Shown in pieces: positions 20,164-62,512 of a stretch of 64,000 bases of DNA. The DNA is taken from NCBI GenBank assembly GCA_052030825.1, contig JBPEYE010000392.1, positions 10,012-74,011 of the forward strand. The letters are read 5' to 3'. The translations under genes were made by a program, and so were the position numbers. The first letter of the stretch is position 1; every line of letters begins with the position of its first letter. The notes below the pieces were generated by a model. It searched no databases. It saw only the letters and a list, made by a program, of their open reading frames with translations, and was not told the DNA's origin. The DNA is from Gammaproteobacteria bacterium (GTDB lineage Bacteria > Pseudomonadota > Gammaproteobacteria > GCA-001735895).

Positions 20164-22887
20164 TCAGTCGCCGGGTGACGCGGCGGACAAGTGCGCCAGA
20201 TGCGCTTCGACCTCGCTTACGATGGCGTCGATTTCAGCCACGATTTCGTCAACCAGCCCGGTCTCGCCGATAGCTTCCTGCCGCGCGAGACCCTGCTGCA
20301 GCGCGAGGACCGAGCGGCGCAGGCGCGGCAGGCTGGCGTAACAGGTGACGCCATGCAGCTTGTGCGCCAGTGCGCCCAGTCGCTCGCGATCCCCGCTCGC
20401 CAGCGCTTGCAGCAGTTGCGCCCGGTGATCCGGCAGGTCGCGTTCGAGGATCTCGAAAATCTGCCGGAGCAGGTCGGCGTTATCGGCGGCGAGGGCCAGC
20501 GAGCGGTCGAGATCGAGCGTGCAAATCGGCGTCGCGGCCGGGCTTGCGTCGGCGGGCGCGGCGACAGCGATACGCGGGCCACTGCGCTCGAGCACCGAGC
20601 GAAAGCGGGATTCGTCGATCGGTTTGCCGAGAAAGAAATCGAAACCCTCGTCGAGCAGTCGTTCGGCCTCGCCGTCGAGCATATTGGCGGTCAGCGCAAC
20701 CGCCGGAGTCCGCGCGGCGGGTTTCGCCGCGCGCATCCGGCGCAATAATTCGACCCCGTCGATATCCGGCATCTGGATGTCGAGGACGATGAGATCGAAG
20801 CTGTCATCGCGAAAGCACTGCAGTGCCGCTTCGCCGTGTTCGGCTTCGGTGACCTCGTGGCCCCATAGGCGGATCAGTTCGCTCGCGAGTTTCAGGTTGA
20901 TCGGATTGTCGTCGACCAGCAACACCCGTTTCCCGTTGCCGGTAGACGGGGCCGGCTTTGACGGCGACGGCACCGGCGCTGCCGTGCCGGTTTCGAGGAG
21001 GCGCGCCAGCGCGCGGCTGGTGTTGACGACGGAAACGAATTCGCCGCGACCGGCGTCACCCTCGGGTTCCGGGCGCGCATCGTAATCCATGCGAATGACG
21101 CGGACCGCGGCCAGGATTTCGGCGCTCAGAATGACGTCGAGATCGAGCGTTGAATGGCGCTGGTCGAATACCAGGATATCGATGTACGGCAGGCAGCGGT
21201 GGATATTCTCGGTGATCGAGGCGGCATCGGTCGCCGCGTCGACCAGGCTGCTTTCGACGTCGACGCCGGCGCGCTCGTAGAGGCTGCGGGTTTCCATCAG
21301 GCAGAGCTTGTCAGCGGCAAATACGAGCGCCCGCAGTGCCGTTCTTGCGGGAGATGGCGAGTCGTCGTGCGACTTTTTCAGCCGCAGGTGCAGGGTGAAC
21401 TCGGAGCCGACTCCGGGCTCCGAGCGCATCACGATATCGCCTCCCATCAACGTCGCCAGATTCTTGCTGATGACGAGGCCAAGGCCGGTACCGGTGAATC
21501 GCCGGCTGTCCGAGCGCTCGATCTGACTGAAAGCCTTGAACAATCGATCCTGGTCGGCGGGGGAGATCCCGATGCCGGTATCCTCGACCGAGATTGCCAG
21601 GTCGATCTCGTCATCGCGCTCCGATTCGACCTGCACCCGGATCGCAACCCGGCCCTCGTCGGTGAACTTGATCGCGTTACCGATGAGGTTGAGCAGGACC
21701 TGTTTGAGGCGGAGCTTGTCGCCGACGACCCGGCGCGGCGTGTCGCTGTAAATGATCAGGTTCAGATCGATATTCTTGGTGAGCAGGTTGATGAACAGGA
21801 TATCGCGGGTTTGCTCGATGACTTCGTAGAGATCGAAGGCCTCGTCGACGAGATGAAGCTTGCCCGACTCCATCTTCGAAAAGTCGAGAATCTCGTTGAC
21901 GATACTGGTCAGGTCTCCGGTCGATTTGAGCACGATTTCGACGTAACGCTGCTGGGTCGCGTCGAGCTTCGACTGGCCCAACAGACTGATGAACCCCTTG
22001 ATGCCGTTGATCGGGGTGCGTATCTCGTGACTCATGTTGGCCAGAAACTCGGACTTGATCCGGTTGGCCTTTTGCGCCTCGTCGCGTGCCAGCCCGAGTT
22101 CACGATTCTTGGTTTCGAGGTCGGTAATGGCCGCGTTGAGTTGCTGGGTCGCCTGCTGAATGCGCTGGTTGAGATGCCGGCGGTTGGCCAGCAAGGCCTG
22201 GGTCATGCGATTGAAACCCTGCTGCACGGCGCCAATCTCGTTGCCTTCGACCGGCTCGATCGACTTGCCGAGCTGGCCGGTTTCGACTTCCCTGAGGTGT
22301 TCAATCAGCCGGTAGATCGGCCGCGTGATGCGTCGGCTGATAACGGTAACGACGATAACCGCCATAATCAGGATCGCGATGAAGAACAGGATCGAATCGG
22401 CGATGATGCGCCGGGCGGTTTGCTCGAGCTGCGAACGCGACAGATAGAGATGCACCCAACCGAGGGTTTCGATGTCGTCGATCGCCTTGGCGCCACCGGG
22501 CGCGAATACCACGGGGAGCCGGATACTGTGCGACAGAATCGGCTGGCGCAGGTAGCGGTAGTCGGCGGTGGCGTCTGACTCCCAGTTCGCCGAAACCGCT
22601 TCGGCGACGCGCCGACCGTCGCGGTCGAAAACTGTCGCCCGCACGATTTCATTGTGGTCGACCGATTGCGAAAGCAGGTACTGGATTTGCGCGTGGTTAC
22701 CGTTAAAAAGATTGTACTCGGAGGCGCCGGCAATCTGTTGAGCGATGATCTGTCCCTTGCTGTGGAGCAAATCGCCGGCCTGCTCGATGCTGCCGTCGAT
22801 ATGCTTGTAGGTGAACAGCAAATCGATCAGCACGACCGGGATCAGCGTGATCAGCAGGATTTGCGACTGGATACCGGGCCGGCGCAT
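20164..22887 (-). CDS. gacS: Hybrid sensor histidine kinase / response regulator with HPt domain (GacS/BarA-type unorthodox kinase)
   Basis: The 907-aa protein has, in order: TM1, a periplasmic region, TM2, HAMP, HisKA (MSHEIRTPINGI), HATPase_c (GTGLGL), a degenerate receiver-like segment (~480-600), a receiver (LLVDDNPINLKLA...DLIVLDIQMPDIDG), and a C-terminal HPt (HKLHG). Its position next to rlmD matches the E. coli barA-rlmD arrangement. The symbol is assigned by architecture only. Confidence 0.8.
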   Translation of the reverse strand: MRRPGIQSQILLITLIPVVLIDLLFTYKHIDGSIEQAGDLLHSKGQIIAQQIAGASEYNLFNGNHAQIQYLLSQSVDHNEIVRATVFDRDGRRVAEAVSANWESDATADYRYLRQPILSHSIRLPVVFAPGGAKAIDDIETLGWVHLYLSRSQLEQTARRIIADSILFFIAILIMAVIVVTVISRRITRPIYRLIEHLREVETGQLGKSIEPVEGNEIGAVQQGFNRMTQALLANRRHLNQRIQQATQQLNAAITDLETKNRELGLARDEAQKANRIKSEFLANMSHEIRTPINGIKGFISLLGQSKLDATQQRYVEIVLKSTGDLTSIVNEILDFSKMESGKLHLVDEAFDLYEVIEQTRDILFINLLTKNIDLNLIIYSDTPRRVVGDKLRLKQVLLNLIGNAIKFTDEGRVAIRVQVESERDDEIDLAISVEDTGIGISPADQDRLFKAFSQIERSDSRRFTGTGLGLVISKNLATLMGGDIVMRSEPGVGSEFTLHLRLKKSHDDSPSPARTALRALVFAADKLCLMETRSLYERAGVDVESSLVDAATDAASITENIHRCLPYIDILVFDQRHSTLDLDVILSAEILAAVRVIRMDYDARPEPEGDAGRGEFVSVVNTSRALARLLETGTAAPVPSPSKPAPSTGNGKRVLLVDDNPINLKLASELIRLWGHEVTEAEHGEAALQCFRDDSFDLIVLDIQMPDIDGVELLRRMRAAKPAARTPAVALTANMLDGEAERLLDEGFDFFLGKPIDESRFRSVLERSGPRIAVAAPADASPAATPICTLDLDRSLALAADNADLLRQIFEILERDLPDHRAQLLQALASGDRERLGALAHKLHGVTCYASLPRLRRSVLALQQGLARQEAIGETGLVDEIVAEIDAIVSEVEAHLAHLSAASPGD

Positions 22888-25805: not shown

Positions 25806-25882
25806 TTGGCGTCCCCGGCAGGACTCGAACCTGCAACCTACGCCTTAGGAGGGCGTCGCGCTATCCAGTTGTGCCACGGGGA
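25806..25882 (-). tRNA. tRNA-Arg (anticodon CCT)
   Basis: The reverse complement GTCCCCGTGGCACAACTGGATAGCGCGACGCCCTCCTAAGGCGTAGGTTGCAGGTTCGAGTCCTGCCGGGGACGCCA folds as a cloverleaf with anticodon loop CTCCTAA, a T-arm GGTTCGAGTCC and a 3' CCA. A TAGAAT -10-like hexamer lies 8 nt upstream of the mature 5' end. Confidence 0.92.
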
Positions 25883-33097: not shown

Positions 33098-35254
33098 ATG
33101 ACAGCACAAGCCGGCGGCGTCGCGGTGAAACACTGGCGCCGGCACCTGCCTTCTTGCACAATGGCCCGCATGGCTGCCGTCGCCTATCCCGCGGTGGGCT
33201 TCTCCGCCTGCCCCCACGACTGCCCGAGCACCTGCGCGCTCGAAGTCGAACTGCTCGACGCGCGCACCGTCGGGCGCGTGCGCGGTGCGCGCGATAACAG
33301 CTACACCGCCGGGGTACTGTGCGCCAAGGTCGCCCGTTACGCCGAGCGCGTGCACCATCCCGAGCGTCTCGGCAAACCCTTGCGACGGCGTGGACCCAAA
33401 GGGCAGGGTCGCGACGCCTTCGTCGAAATTGGCTGGGACGACGCGCTCGACGAAATCGCCGATCGATACGCATGCGCCATTCAGCGCCACGGCAGCGAAA
33501 CGCTGTGGCCGTACCACTACGCCGGTACGATGGGGCTGCTGCAACGCGACAGCATCGAACTGTTTCGCAACCTGCTGAAGACGTCGCGGCAGCATTCGAC
33601 TTTCTGCATCACCCTCGCCGATGCCGGCTGGCTTGCCGGCGCCGGGATCAAGCGCGGCGCCGATCCGCGCCGAATGGCGGACAGCGACCTGATCGTCAAC
33701 TGGGGCGGAAACCCGGTCTATACCCAGGTCAACGTAATGCACCACGTCGCCCGCGCGCGGCGTGAGCGCGGCGCGCGGCTGATCGTCGTCGACACCTACC
33801 GTAACGCAACCGCGCAAAAGGCGGACCAGTTCCTGATGCTGTGTCCGGGCACTGACGGCGCGCTCGCCTGCGCGGTCATGCATCAGCTGTTTGCCGATGA
33901 TCTCGTCGACCGCGCCTACCTCGAGCGCTATACCGATGCGCCGGACGAACTCGAGGCGCATCTGGCGGCGCGCACGCCGGCCTGGGCCGCGGAAATTACC
34001 GGCCTCGACGCGGCCGAAATCATCGAGTTCGCGCGCTGCTACGGCTCGACGCCGAACAGTTTTCTGCGTCTCGGCTATGGTTTTACGCGCTCGCGTAATG
34101 GCGCGGTCAACATGCATGCCGCCGCCTGTCTGCCGGCATTGACCGGCGCCTGGCAATATCCGGGCGGCGGCGCACTCTACGCCAACGGCGGTATGTACGC
34201 CATCGATCAGTCCGTCATCAAGGGGCTCGACGTGCTCGACCCGGCGACCCGTGTCCTCGACCAGTCGCGCATCGGCGACGTACTCGTCGGCAATCCGCGC
34301 GATCTGGGCGACGGACCGCCGGTCACCGCGCTGCTGGTGCAGAACACCAACCCGGTGGTGGTCGCGCCGGAGACGCGCAAGGTGCTCGACGGTTTCGCGC
34401 GCAACGACCTGTTCGTTTGCGTGCACGAGCAGTTCATGACCGAAACCGCGGCGCAGGCCGACATCGTGCTGCCGGCGACGATGTTTCTCGAGCACGACGA
34501 TTTTTACCAGGCCGGCGGGCATACCCACCTGCAGGTCACGCGCGCGCTGATCGAGCCGTTCGCCGAGTGCCGATCGAATCACTGGGTGCTGGGGCAGATC
34601 GCCAGGCGCCTCGGCCACAGCCATCCAGGGTTCGAGCAAACGCCGCGCGCGCTGATCGACGACGCCCTGCGGCGCAGCGGGTTGCCCGACGAGGCGACGC
34701 TTTTCGCGGCGCACTGGCACGATTGCGCGACGGACTTCGAACACACCAATTTTCTCGACGGATTCGAAACCCCGGACCGCCGGTTTCATTTCAAACCCGA
34801 CTGGAGCGGGGTCGGACCGGATCACGCGGCACTGCCGGCGCTGCCGGATCATTTGCCGGTGATGCACGAAGCCGATGACCAGCATCCTTTTCGCCTGGTC
34901 GCGGCGCCGGCGCGGCAATTCCTCAATACCAGCTTTACCGAAACCCCGACCTCGCGCCGCGCCGAGCGCCGGCCGACGCTGTTGATTCATCCGGCCGATG
35001 CCGCCGCGCTCGGCGTCGTCGACGGAGGTCTCGCCCGCATCGGCAACCGGCTGGCCGACATCTTGCTGCACGCGCGGCATTTCGACGGCGTGCAGCGCGG
35101 CGTCGTCATCGTCGAGAGTATCTGGCCGAATCGCGATTTCATCGAGGGTCTCGGGGTCAACGCGCTGGTGTCGGCCGAACCCGGGCTGCCCAACGGCGGT
35201 GCGATCTACCACGATACCGCGGTCTGGATTCGTGCTGCGGCGGAGGACGATTGA
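33098..35254 (+). CDS. Molybdopterin-dependent oxidoreductase (MopB superfamily, FdhF/YdeP-like), N-terminal [4Fe-4S] motif
   Basis: CPHDCPSTC...C cysteine cluster at the N-terminus, with molybdopterin-guanine-dinucleotide binding blocks. About 700 aa. The start may be the Met at 33161. Confidence 0.85.
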   Translation: MTAQAGGVAVKHWRRHLPSCTMARMAAVAYPAVGFSACPHDCPSTCALEVELLDARTVGRVRGARDNSYTAGVLCAKVARYAERVHHPERLGKPLRRRGPKGQGRDAFVEIGWDDALDEIADRYACAIQRHGSETLWPYHYAGTMGLLQRDSIELFRNLLKTSRQHSTFCITLADAGWLAGAGIKRGADPRRMADSDLIVNWGGNPVYTQVNVMHHVARARRERGARLIVVDTYRNATAQKADQFLMLCPGTDGALACAVMHQLFADDLVDRAYLERYTDAPDELEAHLAARTPAWAAEITGLDAAEIIEFARCYGSTPNSFLRLGYGFTRSRNGAVNMHAAACLPALTGAWQYPGGGALYANGGMYAIDQSVIKGLDVLDPATRVLDQSRIGDVLVGNPRDLGDGPPVTALLVQNTNPVVVAPETRKVLDGFARNDLFVCVHEQFMTETAAQADIVLPATMFLEHDDFYQAGGHTHLQVTRALIEPFAECRSNHWVLGQIARRLGHSHPGFEQTPRALIDDALRRSGLPDEATLFAAHWHDCATDFEHTNFLDGFETPDRRFHFKPDWSGVGPDHAALPALPDHLPVMHEADDQHPFRLVAAPARQFLNTSFTETPTSRRAERRPTLLIHPADAAALGVVDGGLARIGNRLADILLHARHFDGVQRGVVIVESIWPNRDFIEGLGVNALVSAEPGLPNGGAIYHDTAVWIRAAAEDD

Positions 35255-35623: not shown

Positions 35624-36256
35624 GTGGTCGGGATTTCCGCGGACGAAGCCCTCGAGCGCCTGGTCGACGGCAACCGGCGCTTCGTTGCCGATCTGCGCGC
35701 CGGCCTCGGCGAATCGGCGAGTGCGCGGAGCTATCAGCTGGTCGCCGAGCAGCGCCCGTTCGCGATCGTGATTGGCTGCTCCGATGCGCGCGTGCCGGCC
35801 GAGATCGTCTTCGATCAGGGCCTCGGCGAACTGTTCGTGATCCGCGTCGCCGGCAACGTCATTGCGCCGTCGCAGATCGGTAGCGTCGAGTTCGCCGCCG
35901 AACGCTTCGGCACGCCGCTGGTGGTGGTGCTCGGCCACACCGGTTGCGGTGCGGTCGAGGCCACGCTCGAAGAACTCGAGCGCCCGAGCGACAGCCGCTC
36001 GCCGAACCTGAGCGCAATCGTCGAGCGCATCCGGCCGGCCGTCGAGCCGCTGTTGCAATCCGGGTCGGGCGACGATGCCGCGCGCCTGATGTCGCGGGCG
36101 GTGCGCGCCAACATTCGTGCATCGGTCGACCAATTGCGTCATGGCTCGGAAATCCTCGAGCGGCTGCTCGACGACGGCCGCCTCGTGATCGTCGGCGCCG
36201 AGTACTCGCTCGAAACCGGCGAGGTCGAGTTTCTCGAATCCGGCGACGAGTCGTGA
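35624..36256 (+). CDS. Beta-class carbonic anhydrase
   Basis: CSDARV...HTGCGAV zinc ligands (Cys, Asp-Arg dyad, His, Cys). The GTG start at 35624 follows the VOC stop by 4 nt. The longer track ORF from 35264 is a frame artefact. Confidence 0.85.
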   Translation: MVGISADEALERLVDGNRRFVADLRAGLGESASARSYQLVAEQRPFAIVIGCSDARVPAEIVFDQGLGELFVIRVAGNVIAPSQIGSVEFAAERFGTPLVVVLGHTGCGAVEATLEELERPSDSRSPNLSAIVERIRPAVEPLLQSGSGDDAARLMSRAVRANIRASVDQLRHGSEILERLLDDGRLVIVGAEYSLETGEVEFLESGDES

Positions 36257-54989: not shown

Positions 54990-55433
54990 GTGAACTTCGA
55001 TATCAACCAGGTAATGGAACTGTTGCCGCACCGGTACCCGTTCCTGCTGATCGATCGCGTGATCGATCTCGAGGCGGGCCAGAGCCTGACCGCGCTGAAG
55101 AACGTGACCATCAACGAGCCTTTCTTCGGCGGTCATTTTCCGGGTCGCCCGGTCATGCCGGGAGTCCTGGTGCTCGAGGCGATGGCGCAGGCGACCGGTC
55201 TGCTCGCGTTTTCCGAAATGGGCCCCGAGCATCGGACCAAGCTCTATATGCTGGTCGGCATCGACAAGGCGCGCTTTCGCGGCCAGGTCGTGCCCGGTGA
55301 CCAGCTGGTGCTCAAGATCGCGCTGAAGCGCAAGATGCGCGGGATCGGCTTTTACCAGTGCGAGGCGAGGGTCGATGGCGAACTCGCGGCCGAAGCCGAA
55401 ATGATGTGCTCGTCGCAGGATCGCGACGCGTGA
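54990..55433 (+). CDS. fabZ: 3-hydroxyacyl-[ACP] dehydratase FabZ
   Basis: [13 protein letters not shown]...[17 protein letters not shown] is the hot-dog fold with the catalytic His. The start is ambiguous: TTG at 54957, GTG at 54990 or ATG at 55014. Confidence 0.9.
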
Positions 55434-56200
55434 TCCACGCCACCGCGATCGTCGATCCGCAGGCCCGCCTCGCCGCCGACGTCGCGGTCGGGCCGTACAG
55501 CGTCATCGGCGCGGGCGTCGAAATCGATGTCGGTACCGTCGTCGGTCCGCATGTCGTCATCATGGGGCCGACGCGTATCGGCCGCAACAATCGTGTTTTC
55601 CAGTTCGCCTCGGTTGGCGAAGCGCCGCAGGACAAGAAGTATGGCGGCGAACCGACGTCGCTGCACATCGGCGACGACAACGTGATTCGCGAGTACGTGA
55701 CCCTGAACCGGGGTACCAACGACGGCAACGGCAAAACCGTCATCGGCAACGATAATCTGTTCATGGCCTATAGCCACGTCGCGCACGACTGCATCGTCGG
55801 CGATCACACGATTTTCGCCAATGCGGCGTCGCTCTCGGGTCACGTCGAGGTCGGCGACTACGCGATTCTCGGCGGATTCACGTCGGTTCATCAGTTTACC
55901 CAGATCGGTGGGCGGGCATTTTGTGGCCTCGGCTCGGTGGTCACCCAGGATGTGCCGCCATTTTGCACCGCCGCCGGCAATCGCGCGCGTACCGTGGGGA
56001 TCAACAAGGAGGGGTTGCGGCGCAGCGGATTCGCCGACGACCTGATCCGCGCCTTGCACAAATCCTTTCGTGAACTATTAAAGTCGAAGCGGTCCAAGAG
56101 TGACGCGATTGATAATCTGAAGCCATTGTGTGATAAATATCCCGAGGTCGAAGAGTTCGTCCGCTTCGTCCGCGACAGCAAAAGAGGGATCGCCAGCTAG
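55430..56200 (+). CDS. lpxA: Acyl-[ACP]--UDP-N-acetylglucosamine O-acyltransferase
   Basis: IHATAIVDP... is a left-handed beta-helix with a C-terminal helical domain. The GTG start overlaps the fabZ stop (GTGA). The track start at 55358 is too early. Confidence 0.93.
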
Positions 56201-56255
56201 CGGATTCGCGGCCGGCGGCGCCAGGGCAGGCGCAAGACATAACAGACCGAAGAGT

Positions 56256-59200
56256 ATGGACGTAAGAGCGCGATTACAGTTTTGGGCAGGCATCCTCTGC
56301 CTCTGCCTTTGCATTAGCCTGGCCGCCCCTGCGCGGGGCCAGGATCTGCTGCGCTCGGTCGTCGATGTCGATTTCGCCGCGATCATCGGCGAGGCCGGCG
56401 CGGTCAAGCTGACCGACGACGGCGTCATTTACGTCAGCAGCCAGCGCGAAGGCACCCTGTTGCGGATCGGCGAGTCCCGGATCGAGACCTTTTCGCTGTG
56501 GCCGTCGGTTTTTGTCGATGCCGATCTCGGCGGTATCGATTTGCTCGCGGACGGATCGCTGGTCGTCGTCAACGAGGGCAGCGGCCAGGTCGGCATTTTC
56601 GATTACGCGATCAAGCCGCGAACGCTGTTTTCGCGGACCGGCGACGAAGCCGGTGAACTCAAGCGTCCCGGCCCGGTGGCGGCGTCGGTCAACGGCCGGA
56701 TCTATGTCGGCGATGCGCGCAACCGCCGAATCAGCGTTTTCAACGACCAGGGTCTGTATTTGTTCAGCATCGGCCGTCGCGGCATCCGCGCATACGACCT
56801 CGAGGGCGTCGAGCATATCGCCATCGATGCCGAAGAGAACGTCTACGTGCTCGAAGGCCCGACCCGGGTTTCGATTTTCAACCGTGACGGCGGCTTGATC
56901 GAACGTTTCGAAGTCGACACGTTGCGCGAGATATTCGGCGGCGTACCGGAGTTCAGCGCGATGACCGCGGATCTCTCCGGAATCCTGTATCTCGGTGACC
57001 GCAGTTCCAGCCGGATCTCGGAATTCGACTGGCGCGCGCGCGAGATTCGTAACCAGTTCGGCGCGCTCGGTCAGTCGCGCACCCAGTATCTCGACATCAC
57101 CGCGCTGAGCGTCAACAATCGCAGCCAGCTGGCGATTCTCGATCGCAAGAACGGCAAGGTCGAGGTTTTCAGGCTCGATAGCGAAACCTATCGACCGCCG
57201 CAAGTCGCCGACCGCATCGAGTACGGTATAGCGATCGGCGGGGATTGCGACGCGATCTATGCCTTCGACCGCGAGCGCATCTTGTGCCTGCGCTCCGGCA
57301 GCGGCATTTTCCTCGTCTCGGCCGACGGCTCGCAAGCGGTTCGTTTTGCCGAGACCGCAACCACGCCGACCGCGGTTCACGTCGGCGAATTCACGGTCGC
57401 CGTGCTGGATCGCAACCTGCTGCGGGTGTTTCATCGTGACGGCGGCGAGCTGTTTGCGATCGGTCGCTACGGTACTGCGCCCGGCGGTTTCATCGATCCC
57501 GGCGACGTGTTCGTGCACGAAGGCCATTACTACGTGTCCGATTTCGGCAACAACCGGATCCAGGTATTTTCCGGCGACGGCCAGTTCGTCGAGGAAATCA
57601 GGGGCGAGCAGGGCGGCGAACGCCTGTTCGACAAGGTCGGCCAGATCGCGGTCGACAGCGAGGGCCGGCTCTACGTTGCCGATCGCGGTGCCGAGCGCGT
57701 TATCCAGGTCATCGATCGAACGCGCAGACGGGTGGCGCAGATCGGCGCCGGCGATGATTCCATTCACCGCTTCAGGCGCTTTTACGCGCTCGACGTCGAC
57801 CGTCAGGATCGGCTCTACGTGCTCGCGGGGTCGGAAGCCAATGATTACTGGGTCGGCATCTACAGTGACTTGCAGCCTTACCGGCGATTCGGCGCGGGTG
57901 GCGATAGCGCTACGCTGGCCGCGTTCTCCGAGGCATCGTCGTTGTCGGTTTACTCGGGGGCGATCAACCGGATTTACGTCAACGATCGGGAGCGAGGTCA
58001 CGGCCATCGCTTCGAGCTGTTCGAGTACCCGGATGCCGCCTTCGGCCTCGGAATCGCCGCCAACCGGCAAACGATCGGCCTCGCCTGGATCAGCTCGAAA
58101 TCGCCGTTGATCGATCATTACGTAGTCGAGGCGGCCCGCGAGCGGGACGGCGAATACGTCCGGGTCGCGCACACCACGGACCGGGAACTGCAGCTGAAGA
58201 ACGAGGAGTGGGGTGATTACAGCTGGTTTCGCGTCGTTTCGGTCAGCGCCCGCGGATTGCGTGCACCGGCGTCGACCCCGAAGCAGAACCTGTTCAAGAT
58301 CATCGCCGGCGACTTCGAGCGCGGCGCATACGGCGACGCGGTCCGGCTCGCCGACCGTTTGCTGAGGATCGACCCCGATAATGCCGACGCGCGCGAGTTA
58401 CTGGCGCTCAGCCTGTATCGTCTCGGCGATTACACGCGCGCCATCACCGAATTCAAGCGTCTCGAATCGGTTGCGGCCTATCACGACCAGGCCCTGCGTT
58501 ACCAGGTACAGGCGTACTACGAACTGGGGCAACTGCTCGATGCACGGGCGATCGCCGATCGTCTCATCGAGGCCGAACCGCCCGATGCCGAGCCTTACCT
58601 GGTCTGCGCGCGACTGAGCCTCGACCTGGCCGACTCGATCGGCGCGGTGGGTTGCGCCGAGGAAGGTCTCGACCGGCATCCCCGCCATGCCGATCTGCGC
58701 TATCTGCTGGGCCGCGCCTACATCGAGGCGGGTATCGCCGAGGACGGGCTGCAGGCATTCGCGCGGGTGATCGAATCCCATCCCGGACGGCACGACCTGC
58801 GAATGCGAATCGCCGACGATCTCTATCGACTCGGGCGCTACGAGGACGCGTTGAAGGAATACGACGCGCTCGTCGAGGCCGCGGCAAACCCCGGGCTGGC
58901 GGCAGTCGGCAAGGCGCGGTCGCTGATTCGGCTCGATCGCGACGAGGAAGCCAAGGCGATCGCGGTCAAGCTGTCCGGCAATCGCGAAACCCGCGGTGAC
59001 GGTTACTATCTGCTCGGCAAGATCGCGTTGCGGCAGAACCGCTACAAGGAAGCCGTGTTGCGCCTGACGCGTGCCGGCAAGGACAGCCCCAATCTCGTCG
59101 ACAACTGGCTTTCGCTGGCGCAGGCCTACGTCGAGATCAATCAGCGCGGCAAGGCGATCGAGACCCTGGCGCAGGGCATCGAGCGCAACCCGCAAGCCTT

Positions 59201-61226
59201 CGAGCTCCAGCTCCTTGCCGGGCGGATCGAACTCGAACGCGAGCGCTACGCCGAGGCCAATGCCCGTCTCGAAGCGGCCGTCGCGCTAAACCCGCAATCA
59301 CTGCCGGCGCGCATCCTGTATTCGCGCGGGCTGTTCGCGACGCGCAATTACCGCTCCGCCGCAATCCATGCCGACGCCGCGGCGCGCATTGCTCCCCGTG
59401 ATATCGAAGTGCTCGTGCTGCAGGCGGACATCGCCAATCAGCAGGGCAAGACCGGTTCGGCGATCGAGCATCTCAAAACCGCGATCAGCCTCGATCCGGC
59501 GTCGCCCGATCTGAAGTACCGCATCGGCCGGGTCTACCAGGATGCCAATCTGTTCGACCTGGCGCAGGCGCAATTCGAGCAGGCGGCGGCGATTCGGCCC
59601 GATTGGGACGATCCGTGGGTTGCACTGGGCAACCTCTACCGCGAGCGCCGCCGCTTCGACGACGCGGTCGCCGCCTTCGAGCAGGCGGTCGAGCGCAAGC
59701 CTTCCGAGGCCAATCGTGCGCTGCTCAATCTGGCCTTCGCCGAGCGCAAGAAGTCGCTCGAGTTCGCGAGCAACGCGCCGCAGCTGGTGCTGTCCGATCT
59801 CAACCTGCAGCGCGTGTTTTCGGCGGCTTACAAGAAATACCAGGACAAGCCGATCGGTTCGATCAAACTGCAAAACATCAGCGCGACCGACTACGGTAAC
59901 CTGACGCTGTCGTTCCAGATTCGCGAATTCATGGATTTTCCGACGCAGGTGCCGATTGCCAAAATCAAGGGCGGCGAGACGCTCGAAATACCCATTACCG
60001 CGACCTTCAACAACCGGATACTCGAGGTCGACGAGGATACCGGCGTGCAGGTCGAAGCTCGCCTCGTTTTTCTGCGTGACGGGCAGAAAGACGCTATCTC
60101 GCTGACCCAGCCGATGACGATTTACGGCAAGAACGCAATCGTCTGGCGGGAAGCGCAGATGATCGGCTCGTTCGTGACGCCGAAGGACGATACGCTGCGC
60201 GATTACGTGCGCCAGGTGATCAATCGCTATCAACCCGACCCCGGACCGCTGAACGACAAGCTGGTCGCGGCGATGGCTTATTTCAGCAGCCTGACCGCCG
60301 CCGGGATCAACTACATCGTCGATCCGAATACACCGTTTGCCGAGCTGCGCGACGACCAGATCGACTACGTGCAGTTCCCGCGCGAAACCCTGCGCCTCAA
60401 GAGCGGTGACTGCGACGATCTGTCGGTGTTGATCAGCGCGGGACTCGAAAATCTCGGTATCCGAACCGCGCTGATCGAAGTGCCCGGGCATCTTTTCGTG
60501 ATGTTCGATACCGGGCTCAACGTCGAAGACGCCGGGCTGATCAGTCAAGACCCCAGCCTGCTCGCGTTTCGCAACGGGCGGATCTGGATTCCGCTCGAGG
60601 CAACGATGATCAACACCAGTTTCAACGAGGCCTGGGCCGAGGGCGCGCGCAAATACCAGCAGGCGCTGGCCGCCGAGGAACTCGGTATCGTCGATCTCGA
60701 AACGGCCTGGCAGCAATACAAGCCCGTGACCCTGCAAAAGGCCGGTTACACGATCGAGCTCCCGGAACCACGACGTACCGAAAGCCTCGTGCAACAGGCG
60801 CGCAAGCGCCTGTTGGCCAAGAGTATCGATCGGCTGGTGCTGCCCTTCGTGGCCATGGTGGCCAACGATCCGGACAATGTCGCCGCGCGCCTGCAGATCG
60901 CGATCCTGTATTCGCGTTACGGACTCTACGAGGATGCCGAAATTGCCTTCGAGGCGCTCAAGGAGCTCGCGCCAGACGACAGCGCGGTCAGGACCAATCT
61001 CGGCAACCTGTACTTTTTGCAGCAGAACTACTCGGGTGCGATCGAGCAGTATCGGCTCGCAACCGAGCTCGACGGCGACGACGGCGGTATCTGGATAAAC
61101 CTCGCGATGGCCCAGTATCGACTCGGCGATGTCGAAAAAGCGAGAAATAATTACATCAAAGCCGTGCAATTGAATGCTAATCTAGGCACTCGGTACGATG
61201 CATTCAGTAAATTGCTGAGCCAGTAA
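56256..61226 (+). CDS. Giant secreted multidomain protein (1656 aa): signal peptide, >10 NHL-repeat beta-propeller blades, a ~12-repeat TPR array, a transglutaminase-like cysteine-protease core, and C-terminal TPRs
   Basis: Signal peptide MDVRARLQFWAGILCLCLCISLAAPARGQ. NHL motifs include YVGDARNRRISVF, YYVSDFGNNRIQVFSGDG and LYVADRGAERVIQVID. Long TPR stretches run across 700-1190. The putative transglutaminase-like triad is Cys (KSGDCDDLSVL), His (VPGHLFVMF) and a downstream Asp. The Met start at 56256 has a GAAGAG Shine-Dalgarno. Confidence 0.85.
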   Translation: MDVRARLQFWAGILCLCLCISLAAPARGQDLLRSVVDVDFAAIIGEAGAVKLTDDGVIYVSSQREGTLLRIGESRIETFSLWPSVFVDADLGGIDLLADGSLVVVNEGSGQVGIFDYAIKPRTLFSRTGDEAGELKRPGPVAASVNGRIYVGDARNRRISVFNDQGLYLFSIGRRGIRAYDLEGVEHIAIDAEENVYVLEGPTRVSIFNRDGGLIERFEVDTLREIFGGVPEFSAMTADLSGILYLGDRSSSRISEFDWRAREIRNQFGALGQSRTQYLDITALSVNNRSQLAILDRKNGKVEVFRLDSETYRPPQVADRIEYGIAIGGDCDAIYAFDRERILCLRSGSGIFLVSADGSQAVRFAETATTPTAVHVGEFTVAVLDRNLLRVFHRDGGELFAIGRYGTAPGGFIDPGDVFVHEGHYYVSDFGNNRIQVFSGDGQFVEEIRGEQGGERLFDKVGQIAVDSEGRLYVADRGAERVIQVIDRTRRRVAQIGAGDDSIHRFRRFYALDVDRQDRLYVLAGSEANDYWVGIYSDLQPYRRFGAGGDSATLAAFSEASSLSVYSGAINRIYVNDRERGHGHRFELFEYPDAAFGLGIAANRQTIGLAWISSKSPLIDHYVVEAARERDGEYVRVAHTTDRELQLKNEEWGDYSWFRVVSVSARGLRAPASTPKQNLFKIIAGDFERGAYGDAVRLADRLLRIDPDNADARELLALSLYRLGDYTRAITEFKRLESVAAYHDQALRYQVQAYYELGQLLDARAIADRLIEAEPPDAEPYLVCARLSLDLADSIGAVGCAEEGLDRHPRHADLRYLLGRAYIEAGIAEDGLQAFARVIESHPGRHDLRMRIADDLYRLGRYEDALKEYDALVEAAANPGLAAVGKARSLIRLDRDEEAKAIAVKLSGNRETRGDGYYLLGKIALRQNRYKEAVLRLTRAGKDSPNLVDNWLSLAQAYVEINQRGKAIETLAQGIERNPQAFELQLLAGRIELERERYAEANARLEAAVALNPQSLPARILYSRGLFATRNYRSAAIHADAAARIAPRDIEVLVLQADIANQQGKTGSAIEHLKTAISLDPASPDLKYRIGRVYQDANLFDLAQAQFEQAAAIRPDWDDPWVALGNLYRERRRFDDAVAAFEQAVERKPSEANRALLNLAFAERKKSLEFASNAPQLVLSDLNLQRVFSAAYKKYQDKPIGSIKLQNISATDYGNLTLSFQIREFMDFPTQVPIAKIKGGETLEIPITATFNNRILEVDEDTGVQVEARLVFLRDGQKDAISLTQPMTIYGKNAIVWREAQMIGSFVTPKDDTLRDYVRQVINRYQPDPGPLNDKLVAAMAYFSSLTAAGINYIVDPNTPFAELRDDQIDYVQFPRETLRLKSGDCDDLSVLISAGLENLGIRTALIEVPGHLFVMFDTGLNVEDAGLISQDPSLLAFRNGRIWIPLEATMINTSFNEAWAEGARKYQQALAAEELGIVDLETAWQQYKPVTLQKAGYTIELPEPRRTESLVQQARKRLLAKSIDRLVLPFVAMVANDPDNVAARLQIAILYSRYGLYEDAEIAFEALKELAPDDSAVRTNLGNLYFLQQNYSGAIEQYRLATELDGDDGGIWINLAMAQYRLGDVEKARNNYIKAVQLNANLGTRYDAFSKLLSQ

Positions 61227-61235
61227 GGGCACACC

Positions 61236-61778
61236 ATGAGAAAGACACTATTGATACTCTGCTGCCTGGGCGCGGTTGCAACCGCCCCGGTGTCCGCAAC
61301 CCAGGGTACGACGACGATCGTCGAGGGCGCTTCGCACAGCGTTTTCACCGGCCTGTTCAAGTCGGTGTGGGCGCGATTGCGCGAATTGAGCCCTTCGCAG
61401 AAAGAATCTGCCAACGCCGAACAGGTCTACACCGCCGGATTACGCGGCGCCGAGGCCACCGATACCCTGCTCAAGCCCTACTGGAAGAATGACCTGACCG
61501 AGGATCCCGCCTTCCAGACCCAGCTCAAGGCTTTCAGCCTAGCGCAGGCGCGCATGGACCAGGGCGAACTATCGGCGGCGATCGATGCCTTCGACCGCTT
61601 TCTCGAGGTACACGGTGACAGCAGCCTGCGCCCCAACGCGCTGTTCGGCAAAAGCCTGAGCCTTGCCGGCGCCGGTGACAGCGAAGCGGCGCGCACCGCG
61701 ATGCGGCAGTTCCTCGACGAGAATCCCAACCACCCGCTCGCCCCGGACGCCCGCCAGGTCATCGACGCGCTCAATTGA
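61236..61778 (+). CDS. Small secreted protein with a TPR-like helical C-terminus (180 aa)
   Basis: Signal peptide MRKTLLILCCLGAVATAPVSA. It starts 10 nt after the giant gene and is probably co-transcribed. Confidence 0.6.
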   Translation: MRKTLLILCCLGAVATAPVSATQGTTTIVEGASHSVFTGLFKSVWARLRELSPSQKESANAEQVYTAGLRGAEATDTLLKPYWKNDLTEDPAFQTQLKAFSLAQARMDQGELSAAIDAFDRFLEVHGDSSLRPNALFGKSLSLAGAGDSEAARTAMRQFLDENPNHPLAPDARQVIDALN

Positions 61779-61837: not shown

Positions 61838-62512
61838 ATGGCGAGCGTGAACCTGCTCGCGATCGACACTTCGACCGAAGCCTGCTCGGCGGCACTGTTG
61901 CGCACCGACGGTGGCGTTTTCGATACCTTCGAGGTTGCCCCGCGGAGGCACGCGACGCTGCTGCCCGAAATGATGGATACGGTGCTCGCGGCGGCCGGCG
62001 TCGCGCGTAGCGAGCTCGACTATTGCGCCTTTGCCAACGGTCCGGGCGCATTCACCGGAATTCGCATTGCCGCCGCGCAGGCGCAGGGGATCGGTGTCGC
62101 CCTCGATATCCCGCTGCTGCCGGTTTCGACCCTGGCGGTGCTCGCGCAGACGCACTTCGAGCGGGCCGAATCGCGCAAGCTGCTCGCCGCGCTCGATGCG
62201 CGCATGAATGAAATCTACTGGGCGGTTTACGTTCGCGGCGCCGACGGTTGCGCCGAACTGCACGGTTGCGAAGGTCTTGACGCGGCGACCGCGGTGCCCA
62301 TCCCGGCTGACCTCGACATCGGCGTCGGTCACGGATGGACCGACGAACTGCGCGCGCGGGCCGAATGCCCCTGCGCCCCGGACCTGTTACCGCACGCGCG
62401 TGCGCTCCTCGCGCTTGCGCGCCGCGATGCGCTGGCCGGTGGTGGCGTTGCGGCGGACGGCATCACGATCAATTATTTGCGCCAGCGGGTTGCCGACAAG
62501 GCACCGGGGTGA
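61838..62512 (+). CDS. tsaB: tRNA threonylcarbamoyladenosine biosynthesis protein TsaB (YeaZ)
   Basis: LLAIDTSTEACSAAL...FANGPGAFTGIRI matches the inactive Kae1/YgjD paralog family. The start is the Met at 61838. Confidence 0.88.
   Translation: MASVNLLAIDTSTEACSAALLRTDGGVFDTFEVAPRRHATLLPEMMDTVLAAAGVARSELDYCAFANGPGAFTGIRIAAAQAQGIGVALDIPLLPVSTLAVLAQTHFERAESRKLLAALDARMNEIYWAVYVRGADGCAELHGCEGLDAATAVPIPADLDIGVGHGWTDELRARAECPCAPDLLPHARALLALARRDALAGGGVAADGITINYLRQRVADKAPG

Follow-up and report, generated by a model that had tools for sequence, protein, structure and literature searches.

A predicted Sec-exported NHL/TPR protein with a divergent transglutaminase-like core, encoded together with a small TPR partner behind lpxA in a gammaproteobacterial clade

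The locus discussed here lies in a 64,000-nucleotide (nt) stretch of contig JBPEYE010000392.1 (assembly GCA_052030825.1, a gammaproteobacterium of the GTDB lineage GCA-001735895), referred to below as the window. Here, the genes dxr through lpxA are found in canonical order, and lpxA is followed by a gene encoding a protein of 1656 amino acids (aa) (the giant gene), a small partner gene, tsaB and truD. This arrangement had been described in an earlier note based on the sequence letters, in which the small gene was taken to encode a secreted TPR-like protein, and it is confirmed by the open reading frames (ORFs) and by Pfam and NCBIfam matches. In E. coli-like Gammaproteobacteria the canonical order of the cluster is rseP-bamA-skp-lpxD-fabZ-lpxA-lpxB-rnhB-dnaE. 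The window differs from this order after lpxA, and no lpxB is found in the window or in related loci.

The giant gene extends from 56256 to 61226 on the plus strand, as defined from the ORF and its translation. The frame is open from 56130 to 61226, and the ATG at 56256, located 55 nt past the lpxA stop at 56200 and preceded by a GAAGAG Shine-Dalgarno-like element, was chosen as the start because orthologs are ~1650−1660 aa long and because the resulting N-terminus is a Sec-type signal peptide. This predicted signal peptide (aa 1−28, 56256−56339), read from the sequence as MDVRARLQFWAGILCLCLCISLAAPARG followed by QD, has a putative signal peptidase I site between ARG and QD, which supports the signal peptide claimed previously. 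It is the segment with the lowest conservation among the giant orthologs (21−46% identity). A lipoprotein signal was considered and rejected for both the giant protein and its small partner, neither of which has a lipobox carrying a small residue before Cys; the small partners of other lineages carry A-x-A sites, which also count against such a signal. Signal peptides are predicted on both proteins. The earlier suggestion that the giant protein is located in the envelope or outside the cell is a reasonable one.

The giant protein is composed of, in order, the signal peptide, two six-bladed NHL propellers, an Ig/FN3 domain, ~15 TPRs, a beta-sandwich, a transglutaminase-like (TGc-like) core and three TPRs. 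The Pfam NHL family (PF01436) is matched above its gathering threshold (E 2e-13, 49.9 bits vs a cut-off of 20), and DUF5128, a six-bladed propeller, is matched at E 5e-11. An AlphaFold2 (AF2) model of aa 28−680, built on 24 orthologs and with a predicted local distance difference test (pLDDT) score of 92, displays 24 plus ~23 short strands (~47) followed by a seven-strand sandwich, which points to two six-bladed propellers (12 blades) and an Ig/FN3 domain; the at least ten NHL blades in two propellers of the earlier note were, therefore, a correct estimate. Propeller 1 comprises aa ~30−306 (56343−57173, plus strand as for all segments of the giant gene), where the six blades of the model (24 strands) coincide with the NHL and DUF5128 matches and with Foldseek matches to NHL domains and double-propeller sensors at E 1e-16 to 1e-13. 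Propeller 2, also with six blades, comprises aa ~320−577 (57213−57986; AF2, Foldseek) and harbors an invariant cysteine pair, Cys331/Cys344 (C304/C317 of the modeled fragment), which is a probable disulfide. The Ig/FN3-like sandwich (aa ~582−664, 57999−58247) has seven strands in the AF2 model, and a Pfam fn3 match is found at the equivalent place in a relative, P0333.

The closest folds to aa 28−680 in the PDB, at E ~1e-16 in Foldseek, are the periplasmic double-propeller-plus-Ig sensor domains of Bacteroides hybrid two-component systems (BT4663, BT4673 and BT3049) together with PorZ, i.e., proteins in which two tandem propellers are also followed by an Ig-like domain. A second group consists of the eukaryotic NHL domains of TRIM71, Thin and TRIM2 (E ~1e-15). 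The identity to the sensors and PorZ is 9−12%, and in these proteins Reg_prop repeats lead to a kinase or to a C-terminal domain of the type IX secretion system (T9SS), whereas in the giant protein NHL-type blades lead to TPRs and an enzyme core.

TPR array A (aa ~669−1180, 58260−59795) is composed of ~15 repeats that are matched by a number of Pfam families with E-values down to 2e-50 (TPR_19 with this E-value and 169.6 bits, TPR_16 with 126.4, TPR_2 with 123.2, and others), and it contains a near-invariant cysteine pair, Cys784/Cys800. A linker helix and TPR array B with three repeats occupy aa ~1501−1656 (60756−61226, including the stop codon), with a Pfam TPR_11 match at 1583−1624. The TPR arrays noted earlier are thus present, but the dozen repeats proposed for them is too low a count (~15+3 from Pfam). 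Similarity to the XrtA/PEP-CTERM TPR protein PrsT (TIGR02917; 164.4 bits, below the cut-off of 312.2) is confined to the TPRs. The last residues, ...Y.A(F/Y)SKLLSQ-COOH (61200−61226), form a consensus tail in 24 orthologs and are kept in orthologs down to ~35% identity (alignment A3); this conserved tail is unusual for a C-terminus and may be a docking motif, e.g., for a PDZ or TPR partner.

Between the two TPR arrays, a beta-sandwich (aa 1181−1296, 59796−60143) directly precedes the TGc-like, papain-fold core (aa 1297−1500, 60144−60755). An AF2 model of this central region (aa 1181−1525) has a pLDDT of 94 and displays the sandwich (strands 21−116 in fragment numbering, with Ig-like and chaperone-like Foldseek matches) and then an alpha/beta core, which is assigned from invariant motifs, Foldseek and the Transglut_core matches of relatives. 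The predicted catalytic cysteine, Cys1386 (codon TGC, 60411−60413; C206 of the fragment), is located at the N-terminus of helix 206−219, the predicted catalytic histidine, His1412 (codon CAT, 60489−60491; H232), at the start of strand 232−242, and the predicted third triad residue, Glu1448 (codon GAG, 60597−60599; E268), directly past strand 262−267. In this model, a cysteine at a helix start, a histidine at a strand start and a glutamate after the next strand constitute the papain/TGc arrangement. All three residues are invariant, as are G204, D205, D208, W264, P266 and T270, in 18 sequences down to 28% identity; in the giant protein they belong to a SGDCDD...PGH...PLEAT motif, of which the pattern G-D-C-D-D, H, W-x-P-x-E-x-T is invariant across relatives. 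The mature protein has five cysteines, i.e., the two conserved pairs 331/344 and 784/800 and Cys1386, which is the only unpaired one, a pattern consistent with an exported enzyme whose catalytic thiol is free. Furthermore, the core is the best-conserved domain of the giant protein (53−92% identity vs 28−82% for the propellers); in the relative P0117, for example, the sandwich and core are 59−62% identical while the propellers are 30−31% identical.

The likeness to the TGc superfamily (PF01841, which includes PNGase, TG2, TG3 and bacterial TGc "putative cysteine proteases") consists of the papain-like alpha+beta core, with the cysteine at a helix N-terminus and the histidine and acid on following strands, as in the folds 2f4m, 2q3z and 1l9n. 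The best PDB matches of the core in Foldseek are mouse PNGase (2f4m), TG2, TG3, protein 4.2 and BDI_1141 (3kd4). Relatives of the giant protein reach PF01841 weakly; 15 out of 18 match Pfam Transglut_core at E<=0.1, the best at 7.7e-6. The differences are that the giant protein itself falls below the Pfam threshold, that the acid is Glu instead of Asp, that the cysteine motif is GDCDD and not G-x-C-x-x-F/Y, and that an exported NHL/TPR scaffold of 1656 aa surrounds the core. Taken at the superfamily level, with Glu for the usual Asp, the TGc assignment is supported by the motifs and the model, even though the protein is not a member by the Pfam threshold. Of the Cys-His-Asp core between TPR arrays proposed in the earlier note, the core, the cysteine and the histidine are thus upheld by motifs, AF2 and Foldseek, while the third residue is Glu; the papain-like order of the Cys, His and Glu elements agrees with the triad that the note had expected in a structural prediction. 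Domain searches, also suggested there, recover NHL and TPR above threshold, and Transglut_core only weakly in the relatives mentioned above and below threshold in the giant protein.

Two other types of protein were compared with this region. The LapG/BTLCP periplasmic Ca-dependent cysteine proteases (PDB 4u65) are the only TGc-type structure reached by a sequence profile; the alignment covers ...DY...P.E.L..G.GDC[DE]D... near the catalytic Cys, and both are exported proteobacterial proteins. This match, obtained with the profile of a trimmed alignment (A2) against the PDB, is non-significant (E 0.21), and the giant protein has no Pfam Peptidase_C93 match; with the profile of alignment A1, matches to the C-terminal TPRs dominated the result. 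LapG itself is small, has a single domain and acts on LapA. In BDI_1141-type proteins (3kd4, "putative protease"; Foldseek rank 15) a beta-sandwich is also found directly before a TGc core, but the match has an E-value of 4.5e-3 and 9% identity, and these proteins have neither propellers nor TPRs.

The family defined by the sandwich and core is large. Its profile retrieves 7727 representative clusters at E<=1e-3 and 1887 at E<=1e-30, with length classes of ~700, 1150, 1240 and 1650 aa, and when a single genome was scanned for each GTDB species, at least 578 of these genomes were found to encode the module. Full-length orthologs, each ~1650 aa and 35−86% identical to the giant protein, form more than 120 clusters; all are from uncultured bacteria and all are labeled "tetratricopeptide repeat protein". 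The class represented by P0333 has the propellers, FN3, the module and TPR array B, and is devoid of the long TPR array. In distant homologs (P0223, P0229) the TGc module is fused to an outer-membrane protein (OMP) beta-barrel, an arrangement that suggests anchoring to the outer membrane and supports an envelope location of the giant protein close to that membrane. In P0229 (locus L088, 6001−7671) the part N-terminal to the module can be aligned with P0223, itself with an OMP beta-barrel match (PF13505), and further small OMP beta-barrel genes are located close to it.

The small partner gene (61236−61778, plus strand) starts 9 nt beyond the giant stop and encodes a predicted Sec-exported protein of 180 aa with a signal peptide, a C-terminal TPR and a conserved ET.SHSVF.GLF.SVW.RL motif. 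Wherever the sequence behind the giant gene is long enough, tblastn places it immediately after that gene on the same strand, with a median gap of ~11 nt. Its matches to CpoB/YbgF (TIGR02795; 35.3 vs 90.1 bits) and BamD (TIGR03302; 25.6 vs 81.4 bits) are below the curated cut-offs, and against the PDB it reaches 3qky (E 0.021) and 2xev (E 0.73). A contig of an uncultured Treponema (L090, 4133−7566) harbors a 621-aa TPR gene and, after a 2-nt gap, a gene for a 521-aa protein composed of an N-terminal extension and the same beta-sandwich/TGc module, i.e., the TPR and TGc parts are on separate genes. This split arrangement supports a TPR partnership.

The giant and small genes appear to be an old, self-contained and native two-gene unit, of which the site after lpxA is shared by one clade. 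Genomic contexts were assessed for the best 80 loci of the species scan: the pair has lpxA upstream and/or tsaB downstream at 24 loci, including that of the Olavius algarvensis Gamma 3 endosymbiont, is found in other contexts at 50, and lies on a contig too short for assignment at six. The lpxA-side/tsaB-side placement thus occurs in 24 of the 74 species genomes that could be assessed, and three metagenome or metagenome-assembled-genome contigs carry the same string, frr-uppS-cdsA-dxr-rseP-bamA-skp-lpxD-fabZ-lpxA-giant-small-tsaB-truD, with orthologs that are 60%, 51% and 49% identical. The position had previously been described as unusual and as a loss of synteny; it is instead ordinary for the lineage, a group of uncultured Gammaproteobacteria resembling sulfur oxidizers, and requires no special explanation. 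This is the result that the note itself had listed as a refutation. The 50 other-context loci belong to Thiohalomonas, Acidiferrobacterales, Ca. Muproteobacteria, Thiotrichaceae, and Beta- and Zetaproteobacteria, where the neighborhoods are many and different (e.g., glgB upstream and xseB-ispA-dxs downstream). That so many genomes carry the pair elsewhere indicates that adjacency to lpxA reflects the history of a clade rather than a conserved functional link.

From the above discussion, it is on balance probable, as judged from sequence and structural models, that the pair is native and vertically inherited, and that it encodes a Sec-exported envelope cysteine protease or transamidase residing on a large scaffold, with a small TPR partner. 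The giant protein would be located in the periplasm or at the cell surface and would act as a cysteine-dependent protease or transamidase. The two NHL propellers, the Ig/FN3 domain and the ~15 TPRs would form a large binding scaffold ahead of the sandwich and TGc core, where a protein or envelope polymer substrate could be held by the TPR/propeller part. The free cysteine would then attack a peptide or isopeptide/amide bond of the held substrate, and the acyl-enzyme would be resolved either by water, resulting in cleavage, or by an amine, resulting in a cross-link. The small TPR protein could be an adaptor or regulator. The lpxA-tsaB site would be the result of an old rearrangement in one gammaproteobacterial clade, which includes the Olavius algarvensis Gamma 3 symbiont, and the position carries no specific message on lipid A synthesis.

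A number of observations weigh against this interpretation. The Transglut_core (PF01841) score of the giant protein, obtained with the isolated central region, is sub-threshold (E 0.22, 12.3 vs 23 bits). The Foldseek E-values of the core are modest (5e-4 to 1e-2) and the TM-scores are low, the latter owing to the joint search of two domains. Sequence does not discriminate between the chemistry of a protease, a transglutaminase and an amidase, the predicted envelope location covers a periplasmic as well as a surface or extracellular site, and apart from the small partner no neighbor is kept across lineages and none indicates a substrate. In addition, no experimental study of any member of the family was found in the literature.

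The first of these observations is also at the basis of an unlikely alternative, i.e., that the TGc-like domain is a dead binding module such as that of erythrocyte protein 4.2 and that the giant protein is purely a scaffold or adhesin. Such a role is consistent with the sub-threshold Pfam score (aa 1181−1525 have no Pfam match above threshold, and DUF553 is reached in this region at E 0.015, 15.2 vs 20.5 bits, also below the cut-off), with the presence of protein 4.2 among the fold matches and with the fact that NHL, TPR and Ig binding domains make up the bulk of the protein. However, a relic would not be expected to keep the Cys, His and Glu and their surrounding motifs invariant to 28% identity, to be the best-conserved domain of the protein, or to carry its sole unpaired cysteine as the catalytic residue. 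An active enzyme is therefore favored, on the basis of the invariant triad and motifs, their placement on helix and strands in the model, the top conservation of the core and the Pfam matches of relatives.

According to another improbable explanation, the pair is part of an outer-membrane/lipid A operon, co-transcribed with bamA-skp-lpxD-fabZ-lpxA, and acts on lipopolysaccharide (LPS), OMPs or their assembly. Upstream of the giant gene are lpxD (53933−54955) and fabZ (54882−55433), both on the plus strand and identified from Pfam and NCBIfam, and lpxA, the UDP-GlcNAc O-acyltransferase gene, with a listed ORF at 55358−56200 (plus strand; PRK05289 E 4e-106 and TIGR01852 E 6e-100, both above cut-off, and Pfam Hexapep and Acetyltransf_11) and a true start probably near 55430, because relatives are 256 aa. 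The 55-nt spacer (56201−56255, plus strand) contains the GAAGAG element, and a pattern scan found no terminator-like or sigma-70-like site in it, from which co-transcription of lpxA and the giant gene is plausible. The adjacency is retained in 24 species genomes, the TPR of the small partner is weakly similar to those of BamD and YbgF, and the N-terminal fold of the giant protein resembles PorZ. The latter is an LPS-binding T9SS component. In contrast, the pair is found elsewhere, next to glgB, xseB-ispA-dxs and other genes, in 50 of the 74 assessable species genomes, such that co-transcription with lpxA would be no evidence for a lipid A function, and the BamD and YbgF scores are far below cut-off. 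In one member of the clade, the Olavius algarvensis Gamma 3 scaffold DS021198 (L007, 5600−6400), lpxA itself looks split: tblastn covers the C-terminal part only, and two short ORFs (112 and 153 aa) are found in place of the 256-aa lpxA, which may be a frameshift or a sequencing error of an old assembly.

A broader view, in which the pair would be an envelope machine of sulfur- and iron-oxidizing Proteobacteria that has so far gone unrecognized, and a periplasmic TGc enzyme on its propeller/TPR scaffold would covalently cross-link or process a specific envelope or extracellular component, is doubtful, slightly more so than the two preceding ones. The lineages concerned are the Gamma 3-symbiont clade, Acidiferrobacterales, Thiohalomonas, Gallionellaceae and other Betaproteobacteria, and Zetaproteobacteria. 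Candidates for the component would be a tether from the outer membrane to peptidoglycan or proteins that coat sulfur or iron deposits; if true, this would constitute a new envelope-maturation pathway. A literature search found nothing on NHL/TPR/transglutaminase proteins of this family in Zetaproteobacteria or sulfur oxidizers. The NHL proteins UetH and UetI, described in a preprint on Tenderiales, are unrelated to the giant family.

It is very unlikely that lpxB was separated from lpxA by a recently acquired island or by a lineage-specific insertion, the latter being an option raised in the earlier note. In favor of such an event, neither the window nor any of the related loci contains lpxB, and the presence of the pair at different sites in different lineages shows that it has moved in evolution. 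The search was done with an E. coli LpxB sequence, which Pfam recognizes as full-length LpxB (E 2e-159); tblastn gave no match in the 64-kb window, which extends 56 kb ahead of the pair and ~2 kb beyond it, nor in 84 related loci, where ~6 kb upstream and 10 kb downstream of the pair were covered, and none of 29 further window ORFs scanned with Pfam is LpxB. The order lpxA-giant-small-tsaB is conserved in relatives, and lpxB next to lpxA, the other arrangement that a locus comparison was expected to reveal, is found at 0 of the 84 related loci; lpxB is simply non-adjacent to lpxA in this clade. Against an insertion, the GC content (0.624), the GC content at third codon positions (GC3, 0.789) and the codon usage of the giant gene equal those of the flanking housekeeping genes, so that the compositional comparison proposed in the note gives no sign of a recent insertion. 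There is no tRNA, repeat or integrase at the borders of the pair (the sole tRNA of the window, tRNA-Arg(CCT), is at 25807−25883 on the minus strand, far from it), the arrangement is kept down to 49% ortholog identity, and the identities of flanks and giant drop in parallel with distance. Horizontal transfer was rejected on the basis of the composition and of the lack of a tRNA at the borders. Moreover, the genes downstream are tsaB and truD and not lpxB-rnhB, and a simple insertion between lpxA and lpxB does not, therefore, account for the locus. The former (61814−62512, plus strand; TIGR03725 E 2e-49, above cut-off) is the downstream flank typical of the clade; the latter has a listed ORF at 62335−63540 (plus strand; Pfam TruD E 8e-49) and a start near 62509, because the gene call in near-identical contigs (L085) is 343 aa.

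A role as an anti-phage defense protein related to ProA (NF058533, "anti-phage protein ProA", 1903 positions) is hardly credible: its N-terminal ~320 positions contain a homologous beta-sandwich and TGc module, matched by 18 out of 18 members of the central-module alignment (positions ~11−317, E down to 5e-16), but the scores are 44−48 bits vs a cut-off of at least 1500 (~48 vs 1500 at best), only positions 11−325, i.e., the first sixth of the model, are matched while the rest is absent, and the giant protein is predicted to be exported, resides in a housekeeping context and is vertically inherited. PADLOC gave TPR-type matches only and PHROGs none, on which grounds a defense or phage origin was rejected; no literature on ProA was found.

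With the break in synteny accounted for, the interest of the locus lies in a large family of exported proteins that has not been curated and that shares a divergent TGc-like core with a putative Cys-His-Glu triad. The 1650-aa NHL/TPR form of this family, always accompanied by the small TPR protein, is conserved among uncultured chemolithoautotrophs of marine and freshwater habitats, one of them an animal symbiont. If its activity and substrate were established, thousands of entries now labeled "tetratricopeptide repeat protein" could be annotated, and an envelope-processing step specific to these bacteria might come to light. The family is, thus, a useful annotation target rather than one that overturns current views.

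Further features were noted elsewhere in the window. The nitrogen-signaling nucleotidyltransferase genes glnE (163−2994, minus strand) and glnD (39609−42263, minus strand; GlnD_UR_UTase, HD and ACT) are both found in the 64 kb. Opposite glnD, a 1414-aa ORF without a Pfam match (38073−42317, plus strand) is most likely a high-GC shadow ORF and not a gene. A hybrid histidine kinase with sCache, HAMP, HisKA, HATPase, receiver and Hpt domains is encoded at 20164−22887 (minus strand). The region 28065−33073 contains a gene for a cyclopropane-fatty-acyl-phospholipid synthase (CMAS) on the plus strand, adjoined on the minus strand by genes for a PALP+CBS enzyme (cystathionine beta-synthase-like), an MR/MLE enolase-superfamily protein and a Cys/Met-metabolism pyridoxal-phosphate (PLP) enzyme. 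At 33098−36256, a molybdopterin oxidoreductase gene is directly followed by a beta-carbonic anhydrase gene, of which the ORF has ~165 extra N-terminal residues and is overlapped by an ORF at 35944−38001 whose C-terminus carries a B12-binding domain; the listed starts are thus probably too early.

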